Both the position numbers and the translations under genes were made by a program. This document shows, piece after piece, positions 1-14,945 of a stretch of DNA of 15,616 bases. The stretch comes from Planctomycetota bacterium. GTDB lineage: Bacteria > Planctomycetota > GCA-002687715 > DRQF01. The notes below the pieces were generated by a model. It was not told where the DNA came from. It saw only the letters and a list, made by a program, of their open reading frames with translations, and made no database searches. The stretch lies in assembly GCA_027001995.1 (NCBI GenBank), contig JALTLO010000115.1, forward strand, positions 33,029 to 48,644, written 5' to 3'. Position 1 is the first letter of the stretch. Each line of letters opens with the position of its first letter.

Positions 1-129
1 AACTACACCTTCGCAATGCCCGCAGGTCTTACTGGTTTCTCTTTGATGATCCAAAGCTTGATTCTTGAGCCAGGATTGAACGTCATCAACTTCGGAATTG
101 ACGACGCCATCGAATTGCAGATCATGTAA
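1..129 (+). CDS. 3' end of a gene entering from the left; C-terminus NYTFAMPAGLTGFSLMIQSLILEPGLNVINFGIDDAIELQIM*
   Basis: Frame +1 is open from base 1 to TAA at 127-129 and is followed by a strong + strand intrinsic terminator at 159-190. It is absent from the ORF track because it is truncated at the window edge. Confidence 0.7.
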   Translation, partial: NYTFAMPAGLTGFSLMIQSLILEPGLNVINFGIDDAIELQIM

Positions 130-158
130 TCGAAATCGAAACGGAATTTCGTTTCATG

Positions 159-190
159 GGGGCTCTCCTGCGGGAGGGCCCCTTTTTTTT
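159..190 (+). terminator. Rho-independent terminator
   Basis: GGGGCTCTCC-TGCG-GGAGGGCCCC forms a 10-bp stem with one G-U pair, followed directly by T8 (183-190). It lies 30 nt after the TAA at 129. A smaller hairpin, GAAACGG-AATT-TCGTTTC, precedes it at 138-155. Confidence 0.9.
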
Positions 191-242
191 GTGCAAGAAG
201 AAGCTCAGTCTTCCTTTTGTGCAAGAAGAAGCTCAGTCTTCC
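187..242. repeat. Perfect 28-bp tandem duplication (TTTTGTGCAAGAAGAAGCTCAGTCTTCC x2)
   Basis: Identical copies at 187-214 and 215-242 with no spacer. The second copy contains the stop codon of the minus-strand gene (233-235). Confidence 0.95.
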
Positions 243-760
243 AGATCGTCAATGAGTGAGTCAATGATCCCCGTCGGCAAAGAAACGGTAGCACCATGTT
301 TGTCCAAGACATCCCCCCATTCATCATCGCTCATCCCAGACTCAGCAAGAAACCTGGCAACGAGAGCATCCCCAGCTCCATGGTCCAGATCGAATAAGCT
401 GTCTAAGTCATTTCCTTGGACATCCAAGGCTAGGTGAGTCAATAGGATGAGCCCATCTTCATCCGTCAGTTCCCCCAACGCCTGGTTCCAAGAATCAATC
501 TTTGAGGTGATCTCATTCAACGCAGCCAAAGTAAAAGCAGTGGCGTGGTAGATGGGTGTCCGTCCATCCAAATCACCCGTCAGAATAAGATTTCTTGTGT
601 TTGTCAGAGCCTGCTTGAGGCAACCCTTAGCTATTTCTTCATCGTTTGAGACATGAAAGGCCAGATCAAAGTTGGGCGCATAGATGCGCCCAAGGACATT
701 CTCAAGAGCGTCCAAATTCCCCTTGAGTGCATTGATGAGAACATAGTCCTTCTTCGCCAT
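233..760 (-). CDS. Hypothetical acidic protein with a degenerate ECF sigma-70-like layout (regions 2 and 4)
   Basis: 175 aa with SD AGGGGGAG just upstream of the ATG. LINALKGNLDALENVLGRIYAPNFDLAFHVSNDEEIAKGCLKQAL follows the hydrophobic pattern of ECF region 1.2/2. NQALGELTDEDGLILLTHLALDVQGNDLDSLFDLDHGAGDALVARF follows region 4 (AL..L....R.VL.L....LS..EIA..L....GTVKSRL.RA). The CDS is secure; the fold call is tentative. Confidence 0.6.
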   Translation of the reverse strand: MAKKDYVLINALKGNLDALENVLGRIYAPNFDLAFHVSNDEEIAKGCLKQALTNTRNLILTGDLDGRTPIYHATAFTLAALNEITSKIDSWNQALGELTDEDGLILLTHLALDVQGNDLDSLFDLDHGAGDALVARFLAESGMSDDEWGDVLDKHGATVSLPTGIIDSLIDDLED

Positions 761-789
761 GACTCCCCCTTATTGAAGCCCGCTCAAGA

Positions 790-814
790 GGCCCTGTCTT
801 GCGAAACAAGGGCC
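790..814. other. Intergenic stem-loop (possible weak terminator or RNA stability/processing element)
   Basis: GGCCCTGTCTTGCGAAACAAGGGCC gives about a 10-bp stem with a bulge on the minus-strand transcript. It lies between the UT-sirtuin stop and the SD of the 175-aa gene and has only a weak U-tract (UCUU). Confidence 0.45.
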
Positions 815-836
815 CCACACATAGAAACCACCACAA

Positions 837-2714
837 TCAGTTCAGCCACATACGCATGTGCTTCATTTCGTCAACAAGTTCCTCAAGGACGTCTCCCGTG
901 GAACCCCTCAAAAGAACATCAGCGATAGAATCAAAGTCCGTCGCCGTGTAGTTGACGATAATAAGTTTGGCACCATTGGACGCGGCCCGGGCCACAAGAG
1001 ACGCCACGGGCTCAACGCTCAAGGAAGTACCCGCCACAAGAAGTAGATCACATTGATCAATCAATGTGAGCGCTTTTTGGCTCGACTCCTGTTTCATGGG
1101 TTGGCCAAAGGCGATGGAATCTGGCTTGAGAAGTCCTTGGCAGTGGAGACAATAGGGAACTTCGGTTCCGTGGAGAATCCAACGAAAAACCTCATCTCTC
1201 GAATATGCCGCCCCACAGCTCAAGCAACTGACGCCGAATTCATCACCATGAATCTCAACAACACGCTCTGCTTTATTGCCAGCCCTTTGATGCAAACGAT
1301 CAACATTCTGGGTGATGATGCCTGAGAGTTTACCGATTTTCTCAAGGTCAGCGAGAGCCCGATGTGCCTTGTTCGGTTTTGCTTCACGGAGCAAGACGTA
1401 GAAATCTTGGCTCATCCGCCAATAGGTCTTACGGGCATTTTCATCCCGAAGGAAAGCAGAGTAGACCAGATCCGCCGGGTCATAGGCAGTCCAAGCAATG
1501 ATCCCAGAACGATAGTCGGGGACACCAGATTCAGTGCTGATTCCAGCCCCCGTCAAGACCACAACGCGCTCGCTGGCAAGAAGGTGATTGACAGCTTTCT
1601 TGATGGACTTAGCGGGTACTCCTGGAGGTTGAGGTTTCTGCATCTCTTCGACATCTTGCCAATAGCGCATTCCAGCCGCTCGACTCGGCCCAAAATTGGG
1701 CACGGCATCAGAGCCGACGCGATAAAGTGGTACAGGCACTGGCAAGAACTTGAGGATGGGCTTAGGAGCAAACCGCAAGATCCCCAAGGCTACGATGGCC
1801 GTAAGGGCAAAAGGAAGAGTCAAGAGCGGCAGCTCGAGTTGTTCGAAAAACAACCCTGTAACTTGCCAAAGCGGAGCCGCCACCATCATCGACGCCACTG
1901 CCAGGAGAAAGCTGCGCCAACTTGCGTGAACGAAGAAAAAACCGAGGGCCAACCCCAGAGGTGCTGCGGTAAACCAAGTGAAACCTGGGTAGCGGGGGGC
2001 ATTCGCACCCAAGAGAAGCCCAGCGACGCTCAAAGCCAAGGCAACTGAGACAAGCACCGCGGGAATGCGCCGAGGATTCTCAATGGCGTAACCCAACAAG
2101 AGCAAGACGGCCACGGGTAAATGAGGTAGTCCAGCGTCAAACCAAAGGCGCCAGGCATCTTTCAGGCCAGCGAGGCCATGCCAATGGACATCAACGAACG
2201 ATGGAAAATAAGCATCCGGAGACAAAGTCAGCACGCCAAGACCAACGAAGATCTTGCTCATACCCCAAACAGAAAGCATGGACGGAAAAGTGAGGGCTGG
2301 AAGACCCGGTCTGTCCGACCACCCAGTCAGGGAATAGAGCCGCATCAGGAACCCGGATGTTGCAGAAGAAAAAAGGACCAGCATCATGGGCCAGCCATAG
2401 TCCACTTCCACCGCAGGAACCAATCCTTCGGGGGTCACAAAAGCAATACTACCCAAACCGGCCAATACGCCGTTGTAGCCGAAGACACCACTTTCGACCA
2501 TCAGCCGATCGGCGCCCAGCAAGCGGGCGACGAAGCTCGACACGAGAGCGCCAGCTAAGGCACTCGCACCGGCGAGGGGATGCAAGACGAAAAGAGCGAT
2601 AAGAAATACTAATCCCGATGCGGACCCTGAGGCGAAGAATAACAAGCCGTGACTCTTCAACAGAGTTCGGACTTGGTTCTCAACCCCCGTTGACCAATGC
2701 CTGATCAATGTCAA
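837..2714 (-). CDS. Fusion protein: N-terminal urea-transporter (UT)-family membrane domain plus C-terminal NAD-dependent sirtuin (Sir2/CobB-like) deacylase domain
   Basis: UT domain (~1760-2690): many hydrophobic helices, GVFGYNGVLAG, and twin signatures LPALTFP and LPLLTLPF. Sirtuin domain (~840-1605): TGAGISTESGVPDYR, KPNKAH, TQNVDRLH, EIHG catalytic His, CLSC/CLHC zinc ribbon, GTSL, IIVN. The frame is uninterrupted. Start is TTG at 2714 (overlapping the upstream TGA) or TTG at 2708 (better spacing from SD GGGGAG). Confidence 0.92.
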   Translation of the reverse strand: MTLIRHWSTGVENQVRTLLKSHGLLFFASGSASGLVFLIALFVLHPLAGASALAGALVSSFVARLLGADRLMVESGVFGYNGVLAGLGSIAFVTPEGLVPAVEVDYGWPMMLVLFSSATSGFLMRLYSLTGWSDRPGLPALTFPSMLSVWGMSKIFVGLGVLTLSPDAYFPSFVDVHWHGLAGLKDAWRLWFDAGLPHLPVAVLLLLGYAIENPRRIPAVLVSVALALSVAGLLLGANAPRYPGFTWFTAAPLGLALGFFFVHASWRSFLLAVASMMVAAPLWQVTGLFFEQLELPLLTLPFALTAIVALGILRFAPKPILKFLPVPVPLYRVGSDAVPNFGPSRAAGMRYWQDVEEMQKPQPPGVPAKSIKKAVNHLLASERVVVLTGAGISTESGVPDYRSGIIAWTAYDPADLVYSAFLRDENARKTYWRMSQDFYVLLREAKPNKAHRALADLEKIGKLSGIITQNVDRLHQRAGNKAERVVEIHGDEFGVSCLSCGAAYSRDEVFRWILHGTEVPYCLHCQGLLKPDSIAFGQPMKQESSQKALTLIDQCDLLLVAGTSLSVEPVASLVARAASNGAKLIIVNYTATDFDSIADVLLRGSTGDVLEELVDEMKHMRMWLN

Positions 2715-4081
2715 CTCCCCTTCGGCATCAGACTGTCAGGAACACTTTCCAATGCCAAAGCGTCGGCCACCGTCTCTTCTCGCCGAATCACGTGAACTTC
2801 ATCATCCAACGCCATAACGTAATTGGGTCGGGAATAAATGAACTGCATGGACTGACTGAAGTTATAGGCCCCAACCTTTCGAATTGCATAGACGTCACCA
2901 GGACGTGGAGAAGGCAAAGTCACCTTGGGCCGCACCACATCGATCTGCATACAAAGAGGACCGAACAATTTCACCCGCTCTGTGGGGCGTGGCTCAGTAG
3001 CGATAGGCGTGATCTCATGATCATACCAATAGGCTGTTGGCAAGATGTTGACGCCGGCGTCAATAATAGCCGCCCGTCCTCCGCCCCGCAGTGGCTTCAC
3101 CGAAACAACAGTCGTAATGATGTCGCCACAATCGTCCACCAGAGCACGGCCCGGTTCCAAAATCAACTCGGGCTCATAACCCTCTTTTTCTTTCGCCCGT
3201 ATGAGAGGCTCTGTCACACAGTCGGCATACATTTCTGGAGTAGGAGATGTGGCCGTTCCTTGGAGCATCTGACCCCGTAGGGTATTCGATGAAGCATACC
3301 CTCCTCCCATATCAATGGAGCCAGGGGCAACGCCAAATTTATCCCTCAGTCGAAGAGCCAGTTCCACAAGAGCTGACGCTCCTTTGCGGTATTGATCGGG
3401 ATTAGGAATATAGGTGCCCACATGCATGTGCAAACCAGCAAGTTCGAACTCAGGATTCGCCAAAATTCGCTTGGCCATGGCCATGGCATCACCACTTGCT
3501 AAATTAAAACCGAATTTATCCCAAGGCGGGTAACTCACATCCATATTGACGCGAATGCCGATACGTTTCTTGCCAGGAATATCTTTGGCCAGACGTTCAA
3601 CACGCAAGAGCTCATCGTGATTGTCCAAGTTTACTTGAGACCCATTCTCGAAGGCCCCAATCAGCTCCGCGTTCTTTTTCCAAGGCCCGTTAAACGTGAT
3701 GTCTTCCCCAGGAATTCCCAATCGCCGGCAGACGGCATACTCGAATCCTGACACCACCTCCATTTTCGCACCTTGCTGATACAAGAAAGCGACTAAGGAA
3801 CTCAGGTAGTTCGTTTTCACCGAGTACGCGACGTGCATCTTCTCGTAGTGCTGCTTAAATGCCCCGACGAATCCCTCGTAACTTTTCTTCAGTTGTTTGC
3901 CATCGAAGATCACCAGAGGTGATCCGTACTGTTCAAGTAAAGCAAGCGGGTCATGTCCGGCAATTCGGTCCATTGCCTGTGCTTGACGTTGGCTTAAGGG
4001 CGACCTTGTCGTCATAGGCCGATCTAAGGGAATGACCTTGGGAGCCTCATAAAGTCGCGTAGTTTTCTTCGCCTTTGTCAT
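2711..4081 (-). CDS. Group IV (alanine-racemase fold) PLP-dependent decarboxylase, LysA/BtrK-like; substrate unknown
   Basis: YGSPL, YSVKTN (PLP lysine), FNGPWK, DKFG, HMHVGT, DMGGG, EPGRAL, DAG, GPLCMQID, VGAY. ATGA overlap with the upstream gene at 4078-4081. Confidence 0.92.
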   Translation of the reverse strand: MTKAKKTTRLYEAPKVIPLDRPMTTRSPLSQRQAQAMDRIAGHDPLALLEQYGSPLVIFDGKQLKKSYEGFVGAFKQHYEKMHVAYSVKTNYLSSLVAFLYQQGAKMEVVSGFEYAVCRRLGIPGEDITFNGPWKKNAELIGAFENGSQVNLDNHDELLRVERLAKDIPGKKRIGIRVNMDVSYPPWDKFGFNLASGDAMAMAKRILANPEFELAGLHMHVGTYIPNPDQYRKGASALVELALRLRDKFGVAPGSIDMGGGYASSNTLRGQMLQGTATSPTPEMYADCVTEPLIRAKEKEGYEPELILEPGRALVDDCGDIITTVVSVKPLRGGGRAAIIDAGVNILPTAYWYDHEITPIATEPRPTERVKLFGPLCMQIDVVRPKVTLPSPRPGDVYAIRKVGAYNFSQSMQFIYSRPNYVMALDDEVHVIRREETVADALALESVPDSLMPKGS

Positions 4082-5031
4082 CGGCCAATCCTCTCCAACA
4101 AAGTACTTTGATCAATTGCAAAATCTATCGGTGCGTCGGCGTAGTAGAGACCTGAAGATGTGACGACTCCCGATTCTGCCGATTTCATCGCCGCCATCAA
4201 ATCACTTTCACAAGCCACAAGACAAGAACTGGGAAGAGGCATCGAAGCAACAAACCGAGCTTTTCTTTGTCCTGGCGCGCTTAACCACAGCGTCTGAAAG
4301 AAACCACTTGGCAGCTTAAGGTGAGTCAAATCGTCGATTGCTCGATTCCAGACCCGACCATCTACAGTTCTACCCATGGCCAATCGCCACGATGGCCGCA
4401 TGGAGTCAGCTCTAAAAAAAGCATGATGGCACCCTTTATCGTTCTCGAAATAGTGCAACCCCATGAACAAATCCCTCCCCAAGGAAGGAATCAATGCACA
4501 GGGGCCGACTCCCTTGCGGACAAGGGAAGCGAGCCGAAACCAAGCTTCACCTCCATCCTCCACCGCCACCAGGACGCCGTCCGGCTTCAAGATCCAGCCA
4601 CCATGAAAGATCTTCGCGCAGAGCTTACGGTCTGGTTTCGAAACGATCACCTCGTGTTCAGCTATAGGAACTTCCGCCACCGCCGCCGCTGCCAGAGATG
4701 CGAATCCTCGTGGCGAATCGAGGAGATCTTCCAAGGCAGATTGCCATGAATCATGTTCTTGATCACTCCGTAAGGCGTCTAACCACTCTAAGGCCGCCCG
4801 CGTTCCCGGCACCACAAGGTCATCTGGCCCCAGATCCTCAATCACCTCAAGGAGGCCAGATCCATCAACGCACTGGGCAAGGGAATCTTGCTGCCATCCA
4901 GAATCCATGGGAGAAACAGTCCAGCATTGATGCTTGACCTCCAAGCGGCGGAGCATGGATGCCAATGCTGCTCCACCGCCACCGTCGGGACCATCGTCCA
5001 AGTCGACAATATGTATGTTCCTATCTGCCAT
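4078..5031 (-). CDS. Degenerate ATP-grasp-like protein, apparent paralogue of 7474-8577
   Basis: 317 aa, translationally coupled on both sides. It is collinear with the active ligase: IVDLDDGPDGGGGAALASMLRR vs ISGLDSGTNPHPGTAVAMALKR, LVVPGT vs VLLPCL, SGLYY vs AGIYF. It lacks the ExNxR motif. Confidence 0.65.
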   Translation of the reverse strand: MADRNIHIVDLDDGPDGGGGAALASMLRRLEVKHQCWTVSPMDSGWQQDSLAQCVDGSGLLEVIEDLGPDDLVVPGTRAALEWLDALRSDQEHDSWQSALEDLLDSPRGFASLAAAAVAEVPIAEHEVIVSKPDRKLCAKIFHGGWILKPDGVLVAVEDGGEAWFRLASLVRKGVGPCALIPSLGRDLFMGLHYFENDKGCHHAFFRADSMRPSWRLAMGRTVDGRVWNRAIDDLTHLKLPSGFFQTLWLSAPGQRKARFVASMPLPSSCLVACESDLMAAMKSAESGVVTSSGLYYADAPIDFAIDQSTLLERIGR

Positions 5032-5032
5032 C

Positions 5033-7477
5033 CTATTTCCTCAACCCTTTGTTGATGGCTTCCAAACCTTGAGAAGCTGTTTCCAAGCGCGGCTCCTTTG
5101 CCAGTGCTTTCAAGAAGTAGCTCCTTGCCCGTGCTGGTTTACCCATTTGAAACCATGTCCAACCCAGGGCGCTCAATAAATCCACCCCTAAATCCTTATC
5201 ACGGCCTTCTCGCTTTTCGACTTTTTGAAACCGCCGCAAAGCTCGCTTAGTGAGACCAGCACTGTAGAGATTCCAGCCAAGAGTCATGTCCAAAGCCCGC
5301 CACGCTGCCTTATCGGCAGCGGTCTTGCCAAGAGTTTGGATCCAAGCCTCAGCATATTTTTCGGCTTCGTCGAATTTCTTCGATGCGCTGCAGGCCAAGG
5401 CCAAACCTTTCTTGTGCAAAGCTTCACCGGGTTCGAGTTCAACGGCTTTGGTGAAGTTCGCAACCGATTTTTCGTACTTGCTCCGGTTGTAGAAAGCCCA
5501 CCCCAACGTACCGTAGAGGGGGCGAAACTCCTCAAACTTAGACATCCATTCAGAAAGTTCTGATTCGGCAATGTACTCAGGGTCGGAATTAACCACAGCC
5601 GTGAATGCAATGCGAGCTTCGATGTGTCGGTTCTTAGCAATAAGCATCCGGCCATAACGATCATTGAGTTCAGCATCCGTGGGAAAGTCCTTAACCCACT
5701 GTGCCAAGAGATCAAAGACCTCTTCCCCACGATTCCATTCAATGAGTGCCCGGGCCAGGAGCTTACGAGGCCGAGGGTCGTTAGGAAGTTGAGCCAAAAG
5801 TGGTTCTAAGACTCGTTTCGCATCGCCATACTCACGCAGACTCACCAAGGCCCACCCCAATCCGACACCGGCATCGGTCAGTTTTGGATTTCTTTGCAAT
5901 GCCGAACGAAAGAGTTTGGCAGCATCTCTAGGTCTGCTTTGTAGTCGGGCAATGTGCCCAAGGGAGTAATCGATCAGGTCGATGCGCGCCCGAGGGAATC
6001 TCTTGGCAGGATCTTGCCTCAGATTCTTGAAGATTGCCGATGCACCGTCCAATTCTCCGGTGCCTATAAGAGCCCAGGCCCGATTGTAGTCCTCAAAACG
6101 CCACACTTGAATCAGTTTCATTCCCTCGATTGCAGGGGAATAGTCCGGCATTGCTGCCAGAGATTTTTGGAAGCTCATCTCGGCTTCCAGGTATTTCTTT
6201 TGCGCAATCCTCACATAACCAAGGCCGGCATGAGCATCTGCCCATTCACCTTGAAGTTCAAGGGCCTTCTCAAACATGGTGGCAGCTTCATCCGCTTCTC
6301 CCAGCCGTAAATGAGCCCAGCCCGCAATCGTAGAAGCCGACAGCTCAACTTCCGTTGTTGCACTTCCATCTGCATTCGGGACCCGCTGATCACGCTGAGG
6401 ATCCTGCCCTCTGTCATGGAGAGACTTAGTGATCCTTAAGGCACCCAAGTTGTCGCCTTGATTGAGAGCACACAGGGCGTCCCCAAGAAGCATTTGGTCG
6501 CGTTCGACATTGGTGGCAGCCGAGCGAAAAACCTGTTGGGCGCTTAAGTACTGCCCAAATTCTGTCAGTGCAAAGCCATAGTCGACCAAGAGACCATTGC
6601 GAGACTTATCCTGGCGAATCCAGGCGAGTAGATCAGCAGTGGCAGCGCTTGGGGACATCTCAAGAGCCCGGCGAAACAATTGAAACGCCTTATCTTTGTC
6701 GCCCTTCTTATTGAGGGACCAGGCCATGCCGTACACAGCACCCCAACTTTGAGGAAAGAGCTCCCGAGCTTTTTCGAAACGCCTCAATGCCGCAGTTGAA
6801 TTGCCCGAATAATAAGCGCACCAACCGTGACTCAGTCGGACTTGCAAATTGTTCGGGTCATACTTGATGGTATGTTCGAAAGCGATGTCAGCTAAACTGT
6901 ATTTCTTACGAGCCAGTTCCACGAAACCAATCCCCGCACTGGTCACGGGATCGTTGCGAACAATGCGATTGGCTTTTTTCAGGTCCTTGAGAGCTTTTTG
7001 GTAGAGCCCAAGGTAGTAATAGCAATAGCCGCGCCCGCGATAGCAACGATTCAAAATATCGTCGTGAGGCCGCGGACGTTTTTCCAGGATGGCGTCAAAA
7101 GTCGCAACCGATTCAGTATATCGGCTTTGAGCCAGCAACGTTTCCGCACGAACGATCTCCCCGAGACGGGCGTTCTTAACGCTCTCGAGGCCCATTTTCG
7201 AATAGCGATAGTTCTTGTCGATCGAAAGCGCTTTCTTGAAGCAAGTTTCTGCTTGATCAAGATCGCCACGAAAGAAATAACACCAGCCCAAGCCGTCTTG
7301 AATCTCATGACTCTTGGGGTAAAGACGGGCATCTTTGGCCAACAATTCAAGAGCTACATCATATCGTTTCTGTTTGAAGTAGTCCCAACCAGTGAGACCA
7401 CCCTTCTTTGAACTTTGTCCCAGAGATGTTCCCACAATGAGGAGAACAACAAGCACGATCCAGGAGAAGCGTTTCAT
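5033..7477 (-). CDS. Large exported tetratricopeptide-repeat protein
   Basis: 814 aa with Sec-type signal peptide MKRFSWIVLVVLLIVGTSLG. Many TPR units carry a recurring (L/I)GW motif (GLGWCYF, SHGWCAY, IAGWAHL, GLGWAL, TLGWAFY, TLGWNLY, ALGWTWF). ATGA overlap with the ligase stop. Confidence 0.9.
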   Translation of the reverse strand: MKRFSWIVLVVLLIVGTSLGQSSKKGGLTGWDYFKQKRYDVALELLAKDARLYPKSHEIQDGLGWCYFFRGDLDQAETCFKKALSIDKNYRYSKMGLESVKNARLGEIVRAETLLAQSRYTESVATFDAILEKRPRPHDDILNRCYRGRGYCYYYLGLYQKALKDLKKANRIVRNDPVTSAGIGFVELARKKYSLADIAFEHTIKYDPNNLQVRLSHGWCAYYSGNSTAALRRFEKARELFPQSWGAVYGMAWSLNKKGDKDKAFQLFRRALEMSPSAATADLLAWIRQDKSRNGLLVDYGFALTEFGQYLSAQQVFRSAATNVERDQMLLGDALCALNQGDNLGALRITKSLHDRGQDPQRDQRVPNADGSATTEVELSASTIAGWAHLRLGEADEAATMFEKALELQGEWADAHAGLGYVRIAQKKYLEAEMSFQKSLAAMPDYSPAIEGMKLIQVWRFEDYNRAWALIGTGELDGASAIFKNLRQDPAKRFPRARIDLIDYSLGHIARLQSRPRDAAKLFRSALQRNPKLTDAGVGLGWALVSLREYGDAKRVLEPLLAQLPNDPRPRKLLARALIEWNRGEEVFDLLAQWVKDFPTDAELNDRYGRMLIAKNRHIEARIAFTAVVNSDPEYIAESELSEWMSKFEEFRPLYGTLGWAFYNRSKYEKSVANFTKAVELEPGEALHKKGLALACSASKKFDEAEKYAEAWIQTLGKTAADKAAWRALDMTLGWNLYSAGLTKRALRRFQKVEKREGRDKDLGVDLLSALGWTWFQMGKPARARSYFLKALAKEPRLETASQGLEAINKGLRK

Positions 7478-8577
7478 TTCTTGCTTTCCGACAAAAGGTT
7501 GTCTTTGTCATGTTGCTCAGTGCGAACCCCAAGCTCGTTGCTTAGCACGGCATCCCAAACCTTGAGACTATTACTGGAACCGTATGATTGTATGTGCCCC
7601 CGGGAGAAATAGATCCCTGCTTTCGGGCTCGGAACGAATTCCGGGTTCATCCCCGCAGCCTCGGCGACCGCTGCATGAACAATGGGAAAGTCGATTTCCG
7701 TTGCGAAAGAAATCCAAGCTGGAAATCGCCCATTCACTTCGATCAACAAGAAGTCACCTGTTGTGGCATCCTTCATGAATTCCAATTCAAAAGGACCTTG
7801 CCAATTGAGCACTTCAAGGAGTTTCCGCGCCACTTGGTCTAACTCAGGGTTTGCCACCGTAACGCCCGAGGTCGCTTTGCCAGAAGAGGTGGTATTCCCC
7901 TTCTTGACGCTCACAGACCCCAGGAGCCCTCGACGCCCCACTACCCCAGCAACAAGGTATTCAACGCCAGCGCGACACTCCTGAGCCATCACGGGATAAC
8001 CCCATTTTTTTGCCATCTTGCGAAACAAAAATTCGGCTTCTTCTTTGTCAAAGGCAAGTTCAGCATCTGCCAATGCGCCTTTAACATAGAGCGGAAAAGA
8101 CCAACCATCCAAGGGATGGAGCTGGCCCGTGTCATAGAGAACACTTGTTCTGGGAGTGAGCAAATTGGCCTGAGAGGCGAGCTCAGACAAATTCCATTTG
8201 AAGCGCCGCTTGACGGAGTCTTCTTGAGGCACCAAAGAGTGTATGCCAATCTCTCGGAGAGGATCTCCTAAGCGTGCGACGGTGGGCAAGTCAGAATCCA
8301 AGCAAGGCAACAAGACATTCAGGCCAAGGTCATGGTGAATGCCAGACAAAGAGCGCATGTACCAATCTTCATGGTCCCCGGGCCAAGGAACCAGAGCGAC
8401 ATCATCGAATAGGTCCTCCATGAATGCACCTGGGATCATGGGATCGTAGGCCAAGGCAATGAGGCGACCATGAAAGTTGGGGTCCCGCTTCAGCGCCATC
8501 GCCACCGCCGTTCCTGGGTGTGGGTTCGTTCCGGAATCAAGCCCACTGATTCCAACGACCAATTCAGAATCGAGCAT
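7474..8577 (-). CDS. ATP-grasp (carboxylate-amine) ligase
   Basis: FPLYVKG, VMAQE, GVEY, WQGPFELEF and the catalytic motif FLLIEVNGRF. ATG at 8577 is preferred over TTG at 8583 because of its spacing from GGGGGTGG. Overlaps the end of the PqqD-like gene. Confidence 0.9.
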   Translation of the reverse strand: MLDSELVVGISGLDSGTNPHPGTAVAMALKRDPNFHGRLIALAYDPMIPGAFMEDLFDDVALVPWPGDHEDWYMRSLSGIHHDLGLNVLLPCLDSDLPTVARLGDPLREIGIHSLVPQEDSVKRRFKWNLSELASQANLLTPRTSVLYDTGQLHPLDGWSFPLYVKGALADAELAFDKEEAEFLFRKMAKKWGYPVMAQECRAGVEYLVAGVVGRRGLLGSVSVKKGNTTSSGKATSGVTVANPELDQVARKLLEVLNWQGPFELEFMKDATTGDFLLIEVNGRFPAWISFATEIDFPIVHAAVAEAAGMNPEFVPSPKAGIYFSRGHIQSYGSSNSLKVWDAVLSNELGVRTEQHDKDNLLSESKK

Positions 8578-8848
8578 CTTCAACCACCCCCAGCCTGACT
8601 AGGTCAAGAAGACAGCGTTCAACATCCCCCCGCACAACTTCTTCATCGACGTCAAAACCTTCGACCAAAGCCGCAATAATCTGGGAGCGTCCGGCGCCTT
8701 GCTGCAATTGCGATAACACCAAATGGGCGCTATCATTGAGCAACAGGACTTGCCCCGATTCGGGAATCCGCAGCAGCAGCCCCCGATCGCTGGAATCCAA
8801 GTCGAATTCAACTTTGAGGCTCAGTTTCGCCTCGCTTGTCTCAGACAT
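8564..8848 (-). CDS. Stand-alone PqqD-family protein / RiPP recognition element (RRE)
   Basis: 94 aa with the classic three-strand plus three-helix pattern: LLLRIPESGQVLLLNDSAHLVLSQL...SQIIAALVEGFDVDEEVVRGDVERCLLDLVRLGVV. GGGGG SD upstream. Confidence 0.9.
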   Translation of the reverse strand: MSETSEAKLSLKVEFDLDSSDRGLLLRIPESGQVLLLNDSAHLVLSQLQQGAGRSQIIAALVEGFDVDEEVVRGDVERCLLDLVRLGVVEDARF

Positions 8849-8875
8849 TCAAAACCCCCATGGCGATTCAATGAA

Positions 8876-8903
8876 ATCATATCTGATCTCGGGACTTTGC
8901 CAT
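8876..8903 (-). promoter_or_regulatory. Possible sigma-70-type promoter for the PqqD-to-sirtuin operon
   Basis: Minus strand ATGGCA-16 nt-TATGAT. The -10 element ends 27 nt upstream of the PqqD start. Confidence 0.35.
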
Positions 8904-8964
8904 CCCGCTACAGATCTATCCTGAAATTTCCCTATTTCGGATCAAAAAACTCTGTTGGACCCAA

Positions 8965-10671
8965 TTATCGGCTCAACAGACTCAAAGCCTGCCTCACCGC
9001 CTTCGATAGCACACGATCCTCAGGATCCCGGCGAGCATATTTAATCACATTCCTTACTTGTCGGCGACTTAAGTGCCCTTTTCCTTGTCCCTTCTTAAGA
9101 ACACGCAGCACCGAAAGATGAACACTTGGAGGAAAATCGTACAGTTGCGGTGCATGACCCGCCAAGTGAGCAGCCAAAGCCCCCACAGCCGTCTTTGGAC
9201 GTTCCGTGGTTTCCACCGTCTCCAGAAGCTCCAAAGCACGGATTCCGGATGCTTTTCTTAGGTTCTTGATCGCCTCGTCTCGGCGGCCTTCATCAAGAAG
9301 TCGGCGCACGTACAATAAATTCCTGGCATCGTCAGCCAAGGATCCTTGATGAGATTCAGTTGGCGCATAGGTTGCGGACAATGGAGCAAATCGTAGGCGA
9401 CGCTCTAGATTCTCGAGAGCCTTGGGGGCCGACAGGTCACCTCCTTGAATAGCAGCCCTAAAGGCCTCCCGAGCCGCTTCTGAATGACCAAGCAATTCCT
9501 CGGCCTCACCAAGAATCCCAGGTGGACAGCTCTCTTTCGCCAACTCGATGAGGGGCGCGATGACATCAATACGCTTGATACCGATTGCAGAACGAAGAGC
9601 TTCAGCCCCCAGGCGCCCTCGATGTTTGTTGTCCAAGACCCAGTCGATCAGAAGGTCATGAAGGCCAGAACGCCTAAACACTTGTGCGCAGGCCAATAGA
9701 TCTTCCGGCTCCGAATCCAACCAAGCTGATGCCGCCTCCTCCGAGACATAGGGAGAGACGGCCCAAGAGGATTCCACAATTAGAGGAAGAAGTTTAGCAA
9801 GTTTTCGATCTTTCTTCGCGAATATCAGCAGGTCTGGCCCTGAGGCATGCCAACCCACGGCACAGGCCGCAGCAAAAGCAGAAACTGTGTCGTCATGGTT
9901 ATGACGCCAACGAGACCATGCCCAACCCCAAGCACTCTCTAAGTCGAGAGAATTCCGGCCCATGGCAGCTCCAAAAGCTCTGCTGGCCGCTGCATAGTTG
10001 CCGTCTTCATAGTGACACCAACCAATGAGTGCCAAAGGCGCCGGCGCCATCTTGTTGAGATTCGCCGCGTGCCCAAAAATCGGTCGCGCGGCTCTGCGCT
10101 CCCCCATGGCTCGATAGGCACTGGCTGTCCCATAGAATGCATCCATGTGCCGCGGATCAACACGAGCCGCCCGCTGAAAGAAATCAAGTGCCACCCGAGG
10201 TAACCCCGCAGACATCTCCACCCACCCAGCCCCGCATAGAACAGAAGTCAAAGCCTCCGCCGGAAGGCGACGTCCAACAAGTTTCAACGCCGACGCAAAA
10301 GCTTCTCGGGCTTGGTCAACGTCTCCCAACTTAATTAAGGCATAGGCTTGACTCAGGGGTTCATAACGATGTCTGGCCAGAGCATCTGCTTGAAACCGAA
10401 GCCCAGTGTGCTCGGGGTAGCTCAAACATGCGTCGTCCAAGAAACGCTGAGCCTCGGCCTCCCGCCCCACTTTCTGCAAAGCGATGGCATAGGCGCGAGC
10501 AGCATCGGCAGAAAATTCCGAGCGGGCAGCCAACTCGTCCATCACCTCCGCTGACAATCCCTCAATAGTGGCCCCTAGGAGGGCATCTCCCCCTTCGTAG
10601 GGGCGATCCCGTCGCCGACGACGCCAGAGAAAGCGCCCAAAGGCGAAGACATTTTTGAATTGATTAGTCAT
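8965..10671 (-). CDS. TPR-repeat protein, no signal peptide, Arg-rich N-terminus
   Basis: 568 aa, Ala-rich and helical. TPR units include GAGWVEM..ALDFFQRAARVDP and LIGWCHYEDGNYAAASRAF. The central part is collinear with modules of the 814-aa TPR protein. Confidence 0.8.
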   Translation of the reverse strand: MTNQFKNVFAFGRFLWRRRRRDRPYEGGDALLGATIEGLSAEVMDELAARSEFSADAARAYAIALQKVGREAEAQRFLDDACLSYPEHTGLRFQADALARHRYEPLSQAYALIKLGDVDQAREAFASALKLVGRRLPAEALTSVLCGAGWVEMSAGLPRVALDFFQRAARVDPRHMDAFYGTASAYRAMGERRAARPIFGHAANLNKMAPAPLALIGWCHYEDGNYAAASRAFGAAMGRNSLDLESAWGWAWSRWRHNHDDTVSAFAAACAVGWHASGPDLLIFAKKDRKLAKLLPLIVESSWAVSPYVSEEAASAWLDSEPEDLLACAQVFRRSGLHDLLIDWVLDNKHRGRLGAEALRSAIGIKRIDVIAPLIELAKESCPPGILGEAEELLGHSEAAREAFRAAIQGGDLSAPKALENLERRLRFAPLSATYAPTESHQGSLADDARNLLYVRRLLDEGRRDEAIKNLRKASGIRALELLETVETTERPKTAVGALAAHLAGHAPQLYDFPPSVHLSVLRVLKKGQGKGHLSRRQVRNVIKYARRDPEDRVLSKAVRQALSLLSR

Positions 10672-10853
10672 TTCAAGATTGCGTTAAAGTCCTTTGCCAC
10701 AAGAGTTTCGCAGCAATCTCCCAAGAAATCCAATAGTTAACTGACATTCTTACCTATCGGGGCAAACTCCTATCCTCGCCAAGAAGATTCTCGTTCTTTG
10801 ATAGCCAATTCTTCAGAATTCAAAGATCTTCTCCCCACTTTAGCTCCGGTCTC

Positions 10854-10882
10854 TTGCCCATTTCGGAGCCAGTTTCTACATT
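10854..10882 (+). promoter_or_regulatory. Sigma-70-type promoter positioned for a leaderless transcript
   Basis: TTGCCC (10854-10859), 17 nt, TACATT (10877-10882), 6 nt, ATG (10889). No SD upstream of the ATG. Confidence 0.6.
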
Positions 10883-10888
10883 CTTCCC

Positions 10889-11497
10889 ATGAAAACACTC
10901 ATAATCATCACCGTCATCGCGTTCTTGACTGCTTGCGGCGGCCAAGATCACAACAATAATACCGCCGAAGATCGTCCATCAAACCCGACGAGTCAACCGG
11001 CGAAAAGTAAGGCCCAAGAAACTCCCAAGTCCATGCCGACTATGAATCCGGCGGAAAATCCAAAGGCCAAAGCCGCTCCTGAGGCCCCTTACAACTATGG
11101 AGCTCCCAAGAAAGCCGCCGGATGGGCAACGCCCAAAGCCATCAAAGTGCAACACATTTTGGTGAGCTTCACCGGAGCCGCAGGCGAAGGACGACTTGGC
11201 AAACGCATCCCTCGGACCCAAGAGCAGGCCAGGAACTTGGTGCACGGTTTAGTCAAGCGCCTTCGTAATGGCGAAGAAATGCTGCCTTTGGTGAAGAAAC
11301 ACACCCAAGATAGTGCTCCAGGCATCTACGAGATGTGTATCGGCAGACCGACTAAGAGAGGTCAAGTACCGCGAGCGGGCATGGTGAAGAATTTCGGGGA
11401 CGTTTCCTTTTCGTTAGACGTTGGCGAGGTTGGATTGGCTGAATATGACAGAACCAATTCCCCCTTCGGCTACCACATTATCAAACGTCTGGAGTAA
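10889..11497 (+). CDS. Lipoprotein parvulin (PpiC/rotamase)-type peptidyl-prolyl cis-trans isomerase
   Basis: Signal peptide with lipobox FLTA-C, then a P/A/K-rich linker. Parvulin motifs VQHILVSF, GMVKNFGDVSFSLDVGEV and SPFGYHIIK. Confidence 0.92.
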   Translation: MKTLIIITVIAFLTACGGQDHNNNTAEDRPSNPTSQPAKSKAQETPKSMPTMNPAENPKAKAAPEAPYNYGAPKKAAGWATPKAIKVQHILVSFTGAAGEGRLGKRIPRTQEQARNLVHGLVKRLRNGEEMLPLVKKHTQDSAPGIYEMCIGRPTKRGQVPRAGMVKNFGDVSFSLDVGEVGLAEYDRTNSPFGYHIIKRLE

Positions 11498-11519
11498 TCG
11501 GACTGAAGTGGTGATCCCA

Positions 11520-12596
11520 ATGATGTTCAGCATCCATGACCGCCCCGCCCTTGAGGGATTTCGCCGCCGACTCCGCTTAGATCCCTATCTCATTGGTCGA
11601 CTTCGCACCCGTTTCTACAAGAAGTCCGAAGAACTCTCGGACTCTCTTGTAGAACTCGGCAATGCTCACATCTCAACCGCCTCCTGCCATATTCGCCCGA
11701 GGGAATTCGAAGTTGTCTCTCGCCAAGACTCCCAAGTGGACGGCGCCACAAAACTGGCACTCAAAACCCACGATGGTCACTTGATCGAAACAGTGATTCT
11801 GAGAATCAAATCTGGTCGCGTTGCTATCTGCGTCTCCTCCCAAGTCGGTTGTGCCGCAGGATGCACTTTCTGTGCCACAGGCAAAACCGGAATCATCCGC
11901 AATTTGACTGCATTCGAAATTGTTGATCAAGTTGCCATTGCCAATCGAATCTTGAAACGAGAAAAGCTCCGCATCAGGAATCTCGTTTTCATGGGCATGG
12001 GTGAACCCCTTCATAATCCCCGTGAAGTCGACTTAGCCCTCGATCTACTTACAGATCCAGCGCTCTTCAATCTAGCCCCGGGGCACATCACAGTTTCGAC
12101 AGTTGGTTTAGAAAAGCAGATGATCGTCTTGGCAAAAAAGCGTCCAAATATTTACCTCGCTCTGAGCCTCCATAGTGCGCGCCAAGACGTCCGGGCTTCC
12201 TTGATCCCTCTTGCCAAGCAGCACAATTTGAAGTCTCTTCATGAGACCATCCACGAGCTTAACCGCCTCCAAGGCCGTCCTATCATGGTGGAATACCTCA
12301 TGCTCGCCGGAGTCAACGACAGCCAGCAAGACCTCGATGCTCTGATCGCTTGGAGCGCAGGCATCCAGATCCATGTCAACCTCATTCCATTCAACCCTAT
12401 TCCCGACAGTCCTCACTTGGCCCCAACAACTCACGAAGACTGCGTCATTTTCGGCAAGAAACTACGAGAAACCGGGATCAAGACGACAATTCGCTATTCC
12501 CTGGGTGCAGACGTCACGGCGGCATGCGGCCAATTGGCAAGAGAAGAAAACCGTCGTCCTTCCTTTCAAGGGACGTCTGCGCTTCCAAAGAAGTAA
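11520..12596 (+). CDS. rlmN: RlmN/Cfr-family radical SAM RNA methyltransferase (RlmN-type)
   Basis: DGATK, IETV, CVSSQVGCAAGCTFCATG (CxxxCxxC), FMGMGEP, SLHS, EYLML.GVND, VNLIPFN, AACGQL. Start placed at ATG 11520 (or 11523) to avoid overlapping the PPIase gene. Confidence 0.88.
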   Translation: MMFSIHDRPALEGFRRRLRLDPYLIGRLRTRFYKKSEELSDSLVELGNAHISTASCHIRPREFEVVSRQDSQVDGATKLALKTHDGHLIETVILRIKSGRVAICVSSQVGCAAGCTFCATGKTGIIRNLTAFEIVDQVAIANRILKREKLRIRNLVFMGMGEPLHNPREVDLALDLLTDPALFNLAPGHITVSTVGLEKQMIVLAKKRPNIYLALSLHSARQDVRASLIPLAKQHNLKSLHETIHELNRLQGRPIMVEYLMLAGVNDSQQDLDALIAWSAGIQIHVNLIPFNPIPDSPHLAPTTHEDCVIFGKKLRETGIKTTIRYSLGADVTAACGQLAREENRRPSFQGTSALPKK

Positions 12597-12640
12597 GGGA
12601 GTGTGTAGAGTCCCCCCATCACGAGAAACAAGGAAGAGTT

Positions 12641-14269
12641 ATGAAGACACTTGCGTTAGTCGCCTTATTGTTGATCACCAACAATCTAAAGGCCCAAGAG
12701 AGTTCCTGGCCTGCTAAAGAGGTCATAGAGGCAATCAAAAGGACTATCGACAACGGCTACTGGCAGGGTGCTGCCCTAGCTTGGATCGACGGCGATAAAG
12801 AAGGTTTCATCGGTTTCGGCCAAGAAGCGGGCAATGGCTCACCCAAGGTAAGCGCGGCCAGCGTCTTTGAAATCGGTTCTATCTCCAAAGTCTTCACTAC
12901 CGCTCTGCTTTGTGATGCTCTTGCCAAGAATGAAATCAAGCTCGAAGCGACTTTAGGGGAGATTCTTGGCACAGAGAAAAAGCTCTCGCCTTCCGTCGCA
13001 AGAATCACCATCGAGCAGCTCGCCACGCACTCTTCCGGGCTGCCCCGTATGCCAACCAACTTCTCCCCGGAGAACAACGAAAATCCCTATGTGGATTACG
13101 GCCAAGACAAACTCTTTGCCTTCCTTGCCACGTTTGAAGTCAATGAGAAAAACGTTGGGCAGATTGCCTATTCCAACCTAGGCATGGGCCTCTTGGGAAC
13201 TGTCCTGGGGATTGTCCTCAAGAAGGACTGGCCGACTTTGATCAAGGAGCGAATCACCGCGCCGCTGAAAATGAACATGACCGGCGTGACGGCACAAAAG
13301 AACGAGGTTCAAGGTCACTCGGGCAAGGTTCCCACGGCTGCCTGGGATTTCGACGCTCTGGCTGGCGCTGGCGATCTCGTCTCCTCCGCCCATGACATGA
13401 TTCTTTGGGGTCGTGCCTGCTTGAGCCCAAGTAAGCCTGGAATCCACCAAGCCATCGCCGCCGCCAGCAAGATTCGCAAGAAAATCGACAAGGACATGAG
13501 CATAGGCTTAGGCTGGCATACGAAGGATCAAGGTGGTCGCCAGGTCATTTGGCACAACGGCGGCACCGGTGGGTTTTCCTCCTTTTTCGCCTTTGAACCT
13601 AAGAGCAACCGCGCCATTTTCTTAGTAGCCAGCAGCAATGGGCCAGAAGTAACCAACGTTGGTTTTCATGCCTTTTTTTCCGATTTCCCCATGGGCATCA
13701 CCAAGTTACCCAAACCCGTATCTCTGGCTGTGGAAGACATGAAACCTTGCGTTGGCCGCTACAGTCTCAAAGGCGGTCTCATGTTTGAAATCGCACTGAG
13801 AGAGAACTTCCTGACCGTTGCTATTCCAGGACAATCCACCTTTACCCTCTATCCTTCAGCAAAGAATGAGTTCTTCTTGGCTGTTGCCGCAGCACGGTGT
13901 CATTTTATCCAAGACAAAGAAGGCAAGATCACAGCCCTTGTTTGGTCTCAGGGAGGGCAGAATCAAAGAGCCATTCGCGTCGAGGGAGAAGTCAAGGAAT
14001 TCCAGATTTCCCCAGAAGATCTCGAAAAATACACCGGTCGCTTCCGCCTGACGAAGGATCTCATCTTTACTTTGAAAGTCGTTCAAGGCCGCCTAAAAGC
14101 GGGGCTCACCGGACAACCTTCCTTCCCCATCTATGCCAAATCGAAGACTGAGTTCTATTATCGTATTCTCGATGCCCAAATGACCTTTTTCTTTGATGAC
14201 AAAGGGAAGGTGACTGCTTTGGAATTGCATCAAAACGGCGCTGACAAGAAGGCACCGCGAATCGACTAA
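12641..14269 (+). CDS. Exported serine hydrolase of the beta-lactamase class C / peptidase S12 family with two C-terminal DUF3471-like domains
   Basis: ATG 12641 follows AGGAAG. Signal peptide MKTLALVALLLITNNLKA. Motifs FEIGSISK (SxxK), LATHSSGLP, YSN, WHNGGTGGF. Two ~90-aa C-terminal repeats (VGRY..GQ..F.LY..EFF..F..DKEGKITAL and TGRF..GQ..F.IY..EFY..F..DDKGKVTAL). Confidence 0.9.
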   Translation: MKTLALVALLLITNNLKAQESSWPAKEVIEAIKRTIDNGYWQGAALAWIDGDKEGFIGFGQEAGNGSPKVSAASVFEIGSISKVFTTALLCDALAKNEIKLEATLGEILGTEKKLSPSVARITIEQLATHSSGLPRMPTNFSPENNENPYVDYGQDKLFAFLATFEVNEKNVGQIAYSNLGMGLLGTVLGIVLKKDWPTLIKERITAPLKMNMTGVTAQKNEVQGHSGKVPTAAWDFDALAGAGDLVSSAHDMILWGRACLSPSKPGIHQAIAAASKIRKKIDKDMSIGLGWHTKDQGGRQVIWHNGGTGGFSSFFAFEPKSNRAIFLVASSNGPEVTNVGFHAFFSDFPMGITKLPKPVSLAVEDMKPCVGRYSLKGGLMFEIALRENFLTVAIPGQSTFTLYPSAKNEFFLAVAAARCHFIQDKEGKITALVWSQGGQNQRAIRVEGEVKEFQISPEDLEKYTGRFRLTKDLIFTLKVVQGRLKAGLTGQPSFPIYAKSKTEFYYRILDAQMTFFFDDKGKVTALELHQNGADKKAPRID

Positions 14270-14291
14270 CTGGCATCCTTTCTGGGCAAGA

Positions 14292-14300
14292 TGTTAACGT
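14292..14300 (+). promoter_or_regulatory. Possible extended -10 element for a leaderless transcript
   Basis: TG-T-TAACGT ends 6 nt before ATG 14307; no SD. Confidence 0.35.
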
Positions 14301-14306
14301 GATGCC

Positions 14307-14945
14307 ATGAGCAAGCCTTTTGTCATCTCCGTGGCTGGGCCAGGATCCAATTCGGGCAAGACCCATTTGGTCTGCGCCTTGCTGCGCCATCTCGCCACCC
14401 TCGGTGATGTGGGAGCGGTCAAGATCGCCACCTCGACTCCAGACCACATGTGCGCCCGTACCAATCTGCCCTGCGACTGTTTGCGCTTTGAGGGACGGAT
14501 GCGCCTGCTCAAAGATCCGGCCTACATCAACAAGGTTGGCAAAGATACAGAAGCTATGTTCGCTGCTGGAGCTCGGCCAACCTGGTGGCTTCAGACAACT
14601 TCGGATGTTCAAATTGAATCGGCCCAGTTTTTGGTCGAAGAACTCTCTGGGCCAAAGATTTGGGTGGTAGAAGGCGCTGGCCCCATTCGCGGGGGTCTTG
14701 CTGACCTAGCAATTCTGGTGGTGAAAGCGGATGGCTCCGAACCCAAAGAGTCTTGGTTCGACCTTTTGCCCCAGGCCCATGTCATCGCCCGAAGCCACGA
14801 GCACGAAATAGACACCGCCATCAACATGAATCCCTGGACGACCTCAGTGCATCATCGACCCACCTTAGAGTTCTCGGGGCGGGCTCAAGAACTGCCGAAG
14901 AAATTCATCGACTTCTTGACTCATTTCTTCAATGGCGAATCATGA
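14307..14945 (+). CDS. MobB-like P-loop NTPase with a Cys/His-rich insert
   Basis: VISVAGPGSNSGKT Walker A, VGAVK, GKDTEAMFAAGA (compare MobB GKDT.R...AGA), VVEG. Insert HMCARTNLPCDC. Confidence 0.65.
   Translation: MSKPFVISVAGPGSNSGKTHLVCALLRHLATLGDVGAVKIATSTPDHMCARTNLPCDCLRFEGRMRLLKDPAYINKVGKDTEAMFAAGARPTWWLQTTSDVQIESAQFLVEELSGPKIWVVEGAGPIRGGLADLAILVVKADGSEPKESWFDLLPQAHVIARSHEHEIDTAINMNPWTTSVHHRPTLEFSGRAQELPKKFIDFLTHFFNGES

Follow-up and report, generated by a model that had tools for sequence, protein, structure and literature searches.

What does a bacterium do with a peptide-recognition element, an ATP-grasp ligase, a decarboxylase and a urea-channel fold fused to a sirtuin, all encoded in one operon? 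The question is raised by the window analysed here, a stretch of 15,616 nucleotides from a Planctomycetota bacterium (contig JALTLO010000115.1, abbreviated C115, positions 33029-48644); coordinates below are window positions 1-15,616 unless prefixed by a contig or locus. An earlier note on this DNA had proposed an uncharacterised system that links an amine or aminoacyl unit to an acceptor. We find that the gene set recurs across phyla and has no description in the open-access literature searched (subscription papers may mention the neighbourhood), which makes it an undescribed conserved system. As to its function, a ligase–decarboxylase module may make an N-acyl-diamine, from which a channel-tethered sirtuin would strip the acyl group for export. 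We offer this reading tentatively, as possible and short of probable. In order of transcription, with one motif inserted after its gene, the components are:

8965..10671, minus strand: tetratricopeptide-repeat (TPR) protein 1, 568 aa (Pfam TPR_2, E 1e-12)
8564..8848, minus strand: discrete RRE (recognition element of RiPPs, ribosomally synthesised and post-translationally modified peptides), 94 aa, lasso-B1 type (PqqD PF05402, E 4e-11)
7474..8583, minus strand: ATP-grasp ligase 1, 367-369 aa (PRK12767, E 5e-14)
5033..7477, minus strand: TPR protein 2, 814 aa (TPR_2, E 1e-52)
4078..5031, minus strand: degenerate ATP-grasp paralogue, 317 aa (HHalign to the second-ligase profile)
2711..4081, minus strand: pyridoxal-phosphate (PLP) decarboxylase of the alanine-racemase fold, 456 aa (Orn_Arg_deC_N, E 6e-32)
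4034..4051, minus strand: YxxPxV motif, decarboxylase residues 11-16, lasso-leader-like, the predicted RRE docking site
837..2714, minus strand: fusion of a urea-transporter (UT) domain to Sir2, 623-625 aa (UT, residues 16-311, E 3.5e-28; SIR2, residues 389-569, E 1.5e-41)

Checked against the sequence, all seven open reading frames (ORFs) are co-oriented on the minus strand where the earlier note had placed them, and the junctions it quoted are present: ATGA at 7474-7477 and 4078-4081, TTGA at 2711-2714 and a lone G at 5032. The overlap between the RRE and ligase 1 genes, also confirmed, is 14 nt with the ATG start at 8577 and 20 nt with the TTG start at 8583. An alternative start for UT-Sir2, TTG at 2708, is used by the database call of 623 aa. 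The GC content is 52.8% for the operon and 51.7% for the genome. A promoter scan was uninformative, with 7 sites versus 6.1 expected.

Our main sample consists of 50 loci from a one-genome-per-species scan with the decarboxylase, which was seeded with window peptides and favours the window's type. The closest named relatives of the window are Planctomycetota metagenome-assembled genomes; carriers among the 50 loci further include Rokubacteria/Methylomirabilota, Syntrophales, Bacteroidota, Dehalococcoidia, Armatimonadota, Vulcanimicrobiota and Firestonebacteria. Profiles built from the loci detect the RRE in 39/50, the first ligase in 43/50 and UT in 47/50. The proposal had been staked beforehand on homologues co-occurring in other genomes, and they do: of the 32 loci whose contigs extend at least 5 kb upstream and 2.2 kb downstream, 29 have RRE, ligase and UT beside the decarboxylase, the three exceptions being L041, L045 and L060. 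In an even draw of the phylum, the decarboxylase family is found in 16 of 301 genomes (~5%). Twelve loci were cut from this draw, four of them repeating earlier loci, and RRE, ligase and UT accompany the decarboxylase in 11. Seven are of the UT-M23 form, four belong to Sir2 types already in the 50-locus set, and the last is truncated by the end of its contig; TPR and barrel genes are present there, but neither a ligase nor an RRE appears in the 9 kb upstream. Tens of genomes, belonging to several phyla, share the arrangement, which therefore lies far beyond chance. The system was not found in the main text and readable supplements of RRE-Finder (PMC7470986), and the accessible part of PMC10849128 makes no mention of it. 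Frame splits, due to assembly errors or decay, were observed in the decarboxylase and second ligase genes of L028 and in the secreted TPR gene of L047.

The best match of the decarboxylase in the PDB is FigC (7KH2), both by sequence (E 9e-58) and by fold (E 1e-39), with BtrK far behind (E 5e-26). Residues K89, H220, C377 and M378 are invariant in 45 decarboxylases. According to PMC7857480, M355 of FigC takes the place of the acidic residue to which a free side-chain amine binds, and the pocket is lined by T327, T330 and Y331, with H357, R387 and N389 modelled near citrate. Pairwise alignment (chain numbering offset 19) matches T327, Y331, C354 and M355 of FigC to T349, Y353, C377 and M378 of the window enzyme, which carries W352 where FigC has T330. 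These pocket residues suggest a side-chain-acylated basic amino acid as the substrate. The citrate-facing H357, R387 and N389 are replaced by I380, Q410 and M412, which makes a neutral acyl group other than citrate probable. The score against the FslC model is 213 bits, versus a cut-off of 500.

The acyl group would be attached by ligase 1. The ATP lysine, the two GPxExE glutamates and the E-x-N-x-R motif are all present in 44/44 first ligases. The structure model of ligase 1 has a predicted local distance difference test score (pLDDT) of 87, and its best fold match is 2pn1, of unknown function (E 1e-20), followed by carbamoyl-phosphate synthetase (CPS), carboxylases, PurK and an L-amino-acid ligase. 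The operon had been credited with a pair of ATP-grasp ligases, of which this one stands as intact, whereas its partner is likely a pseudo-enzyme, whose ATP-grasp ancestry is read from profile comparison only. Among second ligases, E-x-N-x-R is kept in 0/26 and the lysine in just four. The 317-aa protein of the window has no Pfam or NCBIfam match and no usable match in the ESM Atlas. HHalign connects it to the second-ligase profile (P 97.7%, E 1.5e-12, 298 columns), against P of at most 1% for seven other profiles, including that of ligase 1, and 0.8% for a reversed control; second- and first-ligase profiles in turn align at P 100%. The tie of the 317-aa protein to ligase 1 is indirect, through the second-ligase profile, because the two do not align directly (P 1%). 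The protein is the most eroded form of the second ligase and a likely pseudo-enzyme. A second ligase gene is present in 36/37 Sir2 loci, the remaining one being truncated, and in 0/7 M23 loci, two counts that are not independent of the single tree split described below. In L095 the two ligases are fused, with catalytic motifs kept in both halves; originally the pair may have formed two amides.

The RRE had been expected to deliver a peptide substrate to the modifying enzymes. No such peptide was found, and the likely partner of the RRE is the tail of the decarboxylase itself. The RRE profile matches TbiB1 (2e-15) and TfuB1 (2e-14), against 7e-3 for PqqD. PMC13381572 reports that in LppB the Tyr of YxxP is held by D70 and the Pro by N33; these two residues correspond to D75 and N38 of the window RRE, conserved in 40/40 and 38/40 sequences, respectively. 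Residues 1-30 of the decarboxylase form a flexible tail of low model confidence (pLDDT 48-58). The motif [YW]xxPx[LIVF] is present in 45 of 49 scored tails, two loci not being anchorable, and in 12/12 loci of the phylum sample. Among the eight co-oriented proteins, only the decarboxylase carries an N-terminal motif of this kind. No separate precursor peptide gene was found in the window or the 50 loci, a search that did not extend to distant precursors in the rest of the genome: the two motif-bearing short ORFs of the window lie inside other genes, and 68 motif-bearing short-ORF matches in the 50 loci revealed no common short gene on inspection.

The four tails that miss the motif belong to L040, which keeps xxxPxL and an RRE, and to L041, L043 and L045. 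The L041 genome has no RRE match (0/29 candidates), and L043 and L045 have weak RREs only and no UT. In L060 and L048 the motif is present and the family RRE is encoded on a different contig. The motif and the RRE thus appear to be lost together. L041 retains the other six genes with their catalytic residues despite both losses. Of 22 scored tails of the window clade, 19 have Arg and two have Lys at position 16, counted from the motif tyrosine, one row being mis-anchored, and a Lys anywhere in positions 7-30 is present in only 5/22. Elsewhere, position 16 is Lys in 4/4 Sir2+GNAT, 4/4 split-Sir2 and 7/13 M23 tails, the others having Gln, Ala or Ser. A fixed carrier lysine on the tail was therefore rejected for the window clade. 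Because such a lysine is missing here and L041 kept everything else, we read the tail as a docking strap and not as a substrate.

The Rokubacterial decarboxylases of L043 and L045 lie outside the operon, next to DUF1464, ATP-grasp_3, a menaquinone-biosynthesis domain and a methylene-tetrahydromethanopterin (H4MPT) dehydrogenase-like gene; they were possibly recruited to another pathway. The RREs of L051, L061 and L066 have an N-terminal Cys/His extension resembling a zinc ribbon, and those of L052, L056 and L070 are of the same length.

UT is followed by Sir2 in 37/50 loci: 29 encode UT-Sir2, four UT-Sir2-GNAT and four adjacent UT and Sir2 genes. Seven others encode UT-M23, four are cut by contig ends and two lack UT. 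Pfam confirmed GNAT in the three proteins scanned and M23 in the six scanned, L035 and L065 being assigned by similarity. This tabulation of UT-fused domains, which the earlier note had called for, also bears out the UT-M23 form that it mentioned (7/50 loci and 7/12 of the phylum loci), making the window the effector-swapped variant. The two M23 metal motifs were found in 16 and 15 of 17 proteins, and 12/17 share a post-UT linker. In a quick decarboxylase tree (50 rows, split L028 left out, SH-aLRT support only), the M23 types and three truncated single-ligase loci fall on one side of a branch with SH-aLRT 97, and the exchange of Sir2 and M23 may have been a single deep event.

The sirtuin appears catalytically complete, with GAG, QNVD, the catalytic HG/His and four zinc cysteines intact in all 36 aligned domains. 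Its best PDB match is Sir2Af2 (E 1e-48), and it scores 239 against the CobB model (cut-off 320). The UT domain reaches 99 bits with PF03253 (cut-off 25), and against solved UTs the UT profile gives E-values of 1e-59 or better; the score against the Yut model TIGR03441 is 67.8 versus a cut-off of 274.6 bits. The only other sirtuin match in the genome is a CobB-like frame of 173 aa (C93:13601-14119) that looks internally deleted. UT domains fused to EF-hands or TPRs (P0040, P0044; L089:11065-12495) were also observed, suggesting more UT-based sensor architectures.

TPRs were detected in both long ORFs, as expected from the proposal of paired scaffolds, but only one of the two carries a signal peptide. 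A simple hydropathy scan (not SignalP) gave a hydrophobic signal-like stretch in 19/19 homologues shown of TPR protein 2, encoded between the ligases, and no strong N-terminal stretch in 18/18 shown of TPR protein 1, encoded upstream of the RRE. TPR protein 2 is thus predicted to be periplasmic with a Sec-type signal peptide, and TPR protein 1 is likely a cytoplasmic scaffold, which would probably place the two on opposite sides of the inner membrane. Homologues of an outer-membrane barrel are found at 6/50 loci and not at the window's locus, with only weak, unlinked matches in its genome. Brocadiae loci encode lipoprotein-like TPR proteins of 1,555 aa and an upstream barrel. M23-type loci have a small secreted protein (~130-150 aa) just upstream of the RRE, with conserved W-x-G-V-S and NG-aromatic-H motifs (L058:1435-1842, L062:1474-1932, L067:8321-8713, L065, L068 and L072; 5/50 loci plus L072). 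It matches nothing in Pfam, NCBIfam or the window's genome.

A S-adenosylmethionine (SAM) methyltransferase (Methyltransf_2) is encoded at C115:29818-30918 on the minus strand, ~2.1 kb to the left of the window. It lies on the downstream side of UT-Sir2, 2.9 kb away and with a gene of opposite orientation in between, and forms a separate transcription unit. The protein is 33-45% identical to those at L061 (two copies), L064 (between decarboxylase and UT-M23) and L069. These five sequences were scanned against part of the metagenome collection, and the figures that follow refer to the best 80 of 125 confirmed loci. System genes are present at 19 of 26 loci with E of at most 6e-41 (7 clusters at 75% identity) versus 0/54 weaker ones; 16 of the 19 have RRE, ligase or decarboxylase and three UT only. 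On contigs of at least 5 kb, the figures are 12/15 for close and 0/26 for weaker loci. The methyltransferase is a dedicated subfamily but an optional accessory, and the window's genome is the only one carrying the family in the 301-genome draw. Its solved relatives, SibL, BchU, DnrK and DsyB, are small-molecule methyltransferases. Further partners occur at these methyltransferase-linked loci: L102 encodes a P450 plus a methyltransferase of the TylF type following the decarboxylase, L109 also a P450, L089 and L091 a PaaK-like (CoA-)ligase and a second UT-TPR gene, L095 and L096 a second sirtuin, and L086 a UT-M23-TPR protein. The P450, TylF and CoA-ligase partners point to a small-molecule product.

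From these elements we propose the following route. Ligase 1 would spend ATP on an amide bond between an acid and the side-chain amine of an amino acid of the ornithine or lysine type, and the PLP enzyme, given its FigC-type pocket, would then remove the alpha-carboxyl. The conserved binding residues and the co-loss suggest that the RRE grips the YxxPxV tail as an assembly clamp. As the Sir2/M23 exchange suggests, the product would be freed where the channel opens to the cytoplasm, by a domain that cuts amides. Since a sirtuin needs NAD+, the Sir2/M23 end of UT should face the cytoplasm; and as Sir2 and M23 both break amide bonds and occupy the same end of UT, cutting at the channel is the simplest reading. 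Outside, the product would be received by the TPR protein with the signal peptide, the pseudo-ligase and the signal-less TPR protein acting as scaffolds. Some lineages, likely including the window's own, would methylate or otherwise tailor the product. The wider claim, of a new non-ribosomal pathway in at least ten phyla with an RRE as clamp, Sir2 or M23 as channel-tethered deprotecting enzyme and a diamine, in some cases methylated, passing a repurposed UT, we consider somewhat doubtful.

Several observations weigh against this route. The UT domain of the window clade is degenerate, with a Pfam score of 99 bits versus 172-193 for UT-M23. The Gln of the first GQ motif, presumably the filter residue of the channel, is Ala or Leu in 24/24 window-clade proteins, and the domain may lack transport. 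At L102 and L109, genes for RRE, ligase, decarboxylase and tailoring enzymes are found on contigs that lack UT, so a channel-cutter is not obligatory. The GNAT fusion would fit a reversible switch better than a one-way release, and spending ATP and NAD+ on a temporary handle would be costly. We know of no citable case in which the substrate of a sirtuin is a small molecule and not a lysine in a peptide. The nearest solved relative of ligase 1, 2pn1, has no assigned function. The methyltransferase is absent from 5/7 operon-carrying genomes of the order (present in 2/7, and in 0/16 non-carriers). The co-loss of motif and RRE amounts to two independent events only, in incomplete genomes.

In the main rival reading, UT-Sir2 is a sensor-regulator: the degenerate channel would bind an amide- or urea-like ligand and control a protein deacylase that switches the module, the acyl-diamine staying intact. 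Sensors built from Amt channels and kinases are a parallel. The missing pore Gln of the window clade, the UT-less loci, the fusions of UT to EF-hands and TPRs and the resemblance of the sirtuin to generic protein deacylases such as Sir2Af2 all suit a sensor, as does UT-Sir2-GNAT (4/50 loci). This last form joins an acyl writer and an eraser in one chain and thereby agrees with the writer/eraser logic that had been proposed. An M23 domain in the same position, with a common linker, is hard to read as the same switch, and the window-clade tail offers no conserved acetylatable lysine; we hold the sensor to be fairly unlikely. A lysine is central to another possibility, in which the tail carries the building block on a fixed lysine at a distance of 16 residues from the motif tyrosine: ligation and decarboxylation would take place there, and release would fall to the sirtuin, for which acyl-lysine in a peptide is the usual substrate. 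The leader-like geometry of the tail and the Lys at position 16 of Sir2+GNAT, split-Sir2 and many M23 tails agree with such a carrier. The Arg that dominates this position in the window clade does not, nor does L041, where motif and RRE are gone and six genes with catalytic residues remain, and a carrier tail is quite unlikely.

The acceptor originally proposed, a protein, peptide or envelope polymer to which the amine or aminoacyl unit is amide-linked with the sirtuin editing the bond, is unlikely in our judgement. ATP-grasp ligases are known to amidate wall precursors, and the secreted TPR of Sir2-type operons, the barrel homologues at 6/50 loci and the M23 domain of the other form would fit an envelope role. 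Yet no acceptor gene is conserved and the tailoring partners are small-molecule enzymes. In three of three Dehalococcoidia carriers, possibly incomplete genomes, no murC scored above the cut-off and murG had no match, whereas both were matched in 2/2 other genomes (the window's and an Armatimonadetes-labelled carrier); this is suggestive evidence against peptidoglycan. A ureido product is very unlikely. Here a CPS-like ligase would carbamoylate ornithine or lysine, and decarboxylation would yield an N-carbamoyl-diamine that leaves through UT, in keeping with the neutral FigC-type pocket, the UT fold, the two intact-looking halves of the fused L095 ligase and the best characterised PDB matches of the ligase profile, which are CPSs (E 5e-18). 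By fold, however, carboxylases, PurK and an L-amino-acid ligase score equal to CPS, no glutamine amidotransferase was found in any scanned locus, and Sir2 and M23 are left with no clear role. Extremely improbable, finally, is a housekeeping LysA with incidental neighbours. The decarboxylase is the best lysA match of the genome, in which no other was found, but a genome of the same genus has a second, separate LysA-like gene. Housekeeping LysA was rejected on the score against TIGR01048 (221.3 bits, cut-off 297.9), the Cys-Met in place of Cys-Glu, the fixed operon context and dapF, not found in the window's genome (92% complete).

Compared with known systems, the gene set lacks defining features of RiPP clusters, FigA/FigC, BtrI/BtrJ/BtrK and LysA, and would work most like FigA/FigC (FslA/FslC), the rhizoferrin pathway. 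This pathway provides the nearest solved decarboxylase, with the Cys-Met loop and the Thr/Tyr of the specificity helix, and likely shares the order of events, acylation of a side-chain amine followed by decarboxylation. It differs in using an NRPS-independent siderophore (NIS) synthetase where the window has an ATP-grasp enzyme and no IucA/IucC match among its 13 proteins; the citrate-binding residues are replaced, and nothing in that pathway corresponds to the leader-like tail, the RRE, UT-Sir2 or the TPRs. Butirosin biosynthesis (BtrI/BtrJ/BtrK), whose route uses a removable acyl group, likewise combines an ATP-grasp ligase with a group IV (alanine-racemase-fold) decarboxylase. The earlier note had leaned on this pairing, an analogy that is not supported here: the decarboxylase is nearer to FigC, the scanned proteins contain no acyl carrier (no PP-binding match), and there is no sugar pathway. 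With the discrete RREs of lasso and LPP clusters (TbiB1, TfuB1, LppB; PMC13381572), the window RRE shares the subfamily, the YxxP-holding Asn/Asp and the YxxPx[LIV] target. Here the motif stands on the N-terminus of a 456-aa enzyme, and no precursor gene, B2 protease or cyclase was found. The UT domain has the fold and both LPxxTxPF-like repeats of UT/Yut channels, unlike them lacking the first GQ glutamine and scoring below the Yut cut-off. The sirtuin has the fold and catalytic motifs of Sir2Af2/TmSir2-type enzymes, differing in its fusion to UT and its interchange with M23.

Directly after UT-Sir2 lies a gene for a 175-aa protein (233-760, minus strand) without a family match, which by eye resembles a degenerate region 2 of extracytoplasmic function (ECF) sigma factors. 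It recurs in just one same-genus locus and is not counted as a member of the system. A direct duplication of ~27 nt (~183-240) is located at its end, adjoined by a strong plus-strand terminator hairpin at 158-183. On the other side of the operon, positions 10889-15615 hold unrelated neighbours: a PpiC-type rotamase lipoprotein, an RlmN-like radical SAM protein, an AmpH-like beta-lactamase-fold protein with DUF3471, a MobB-like P-loop protein and an ATP-grasp_5 acyl-CoA ligase fragment.

If the proposed route is true, the function of RREs would extend beyond peptide natural products, sirtuins would take part in biosynthesis by acting on a small molecule, and UT-fold proteins would be seen to carry something besides urea. 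Genome mining with RREs would then mis-call these loci as orphan RiPP clusters. The system, present in ~5% of the sampled genomes of the phylum (16/301) and in many others, is tractable with three soluble proteins, and the dedicated methyltransferase would give a second handle for finding the product, through SAM labelling.

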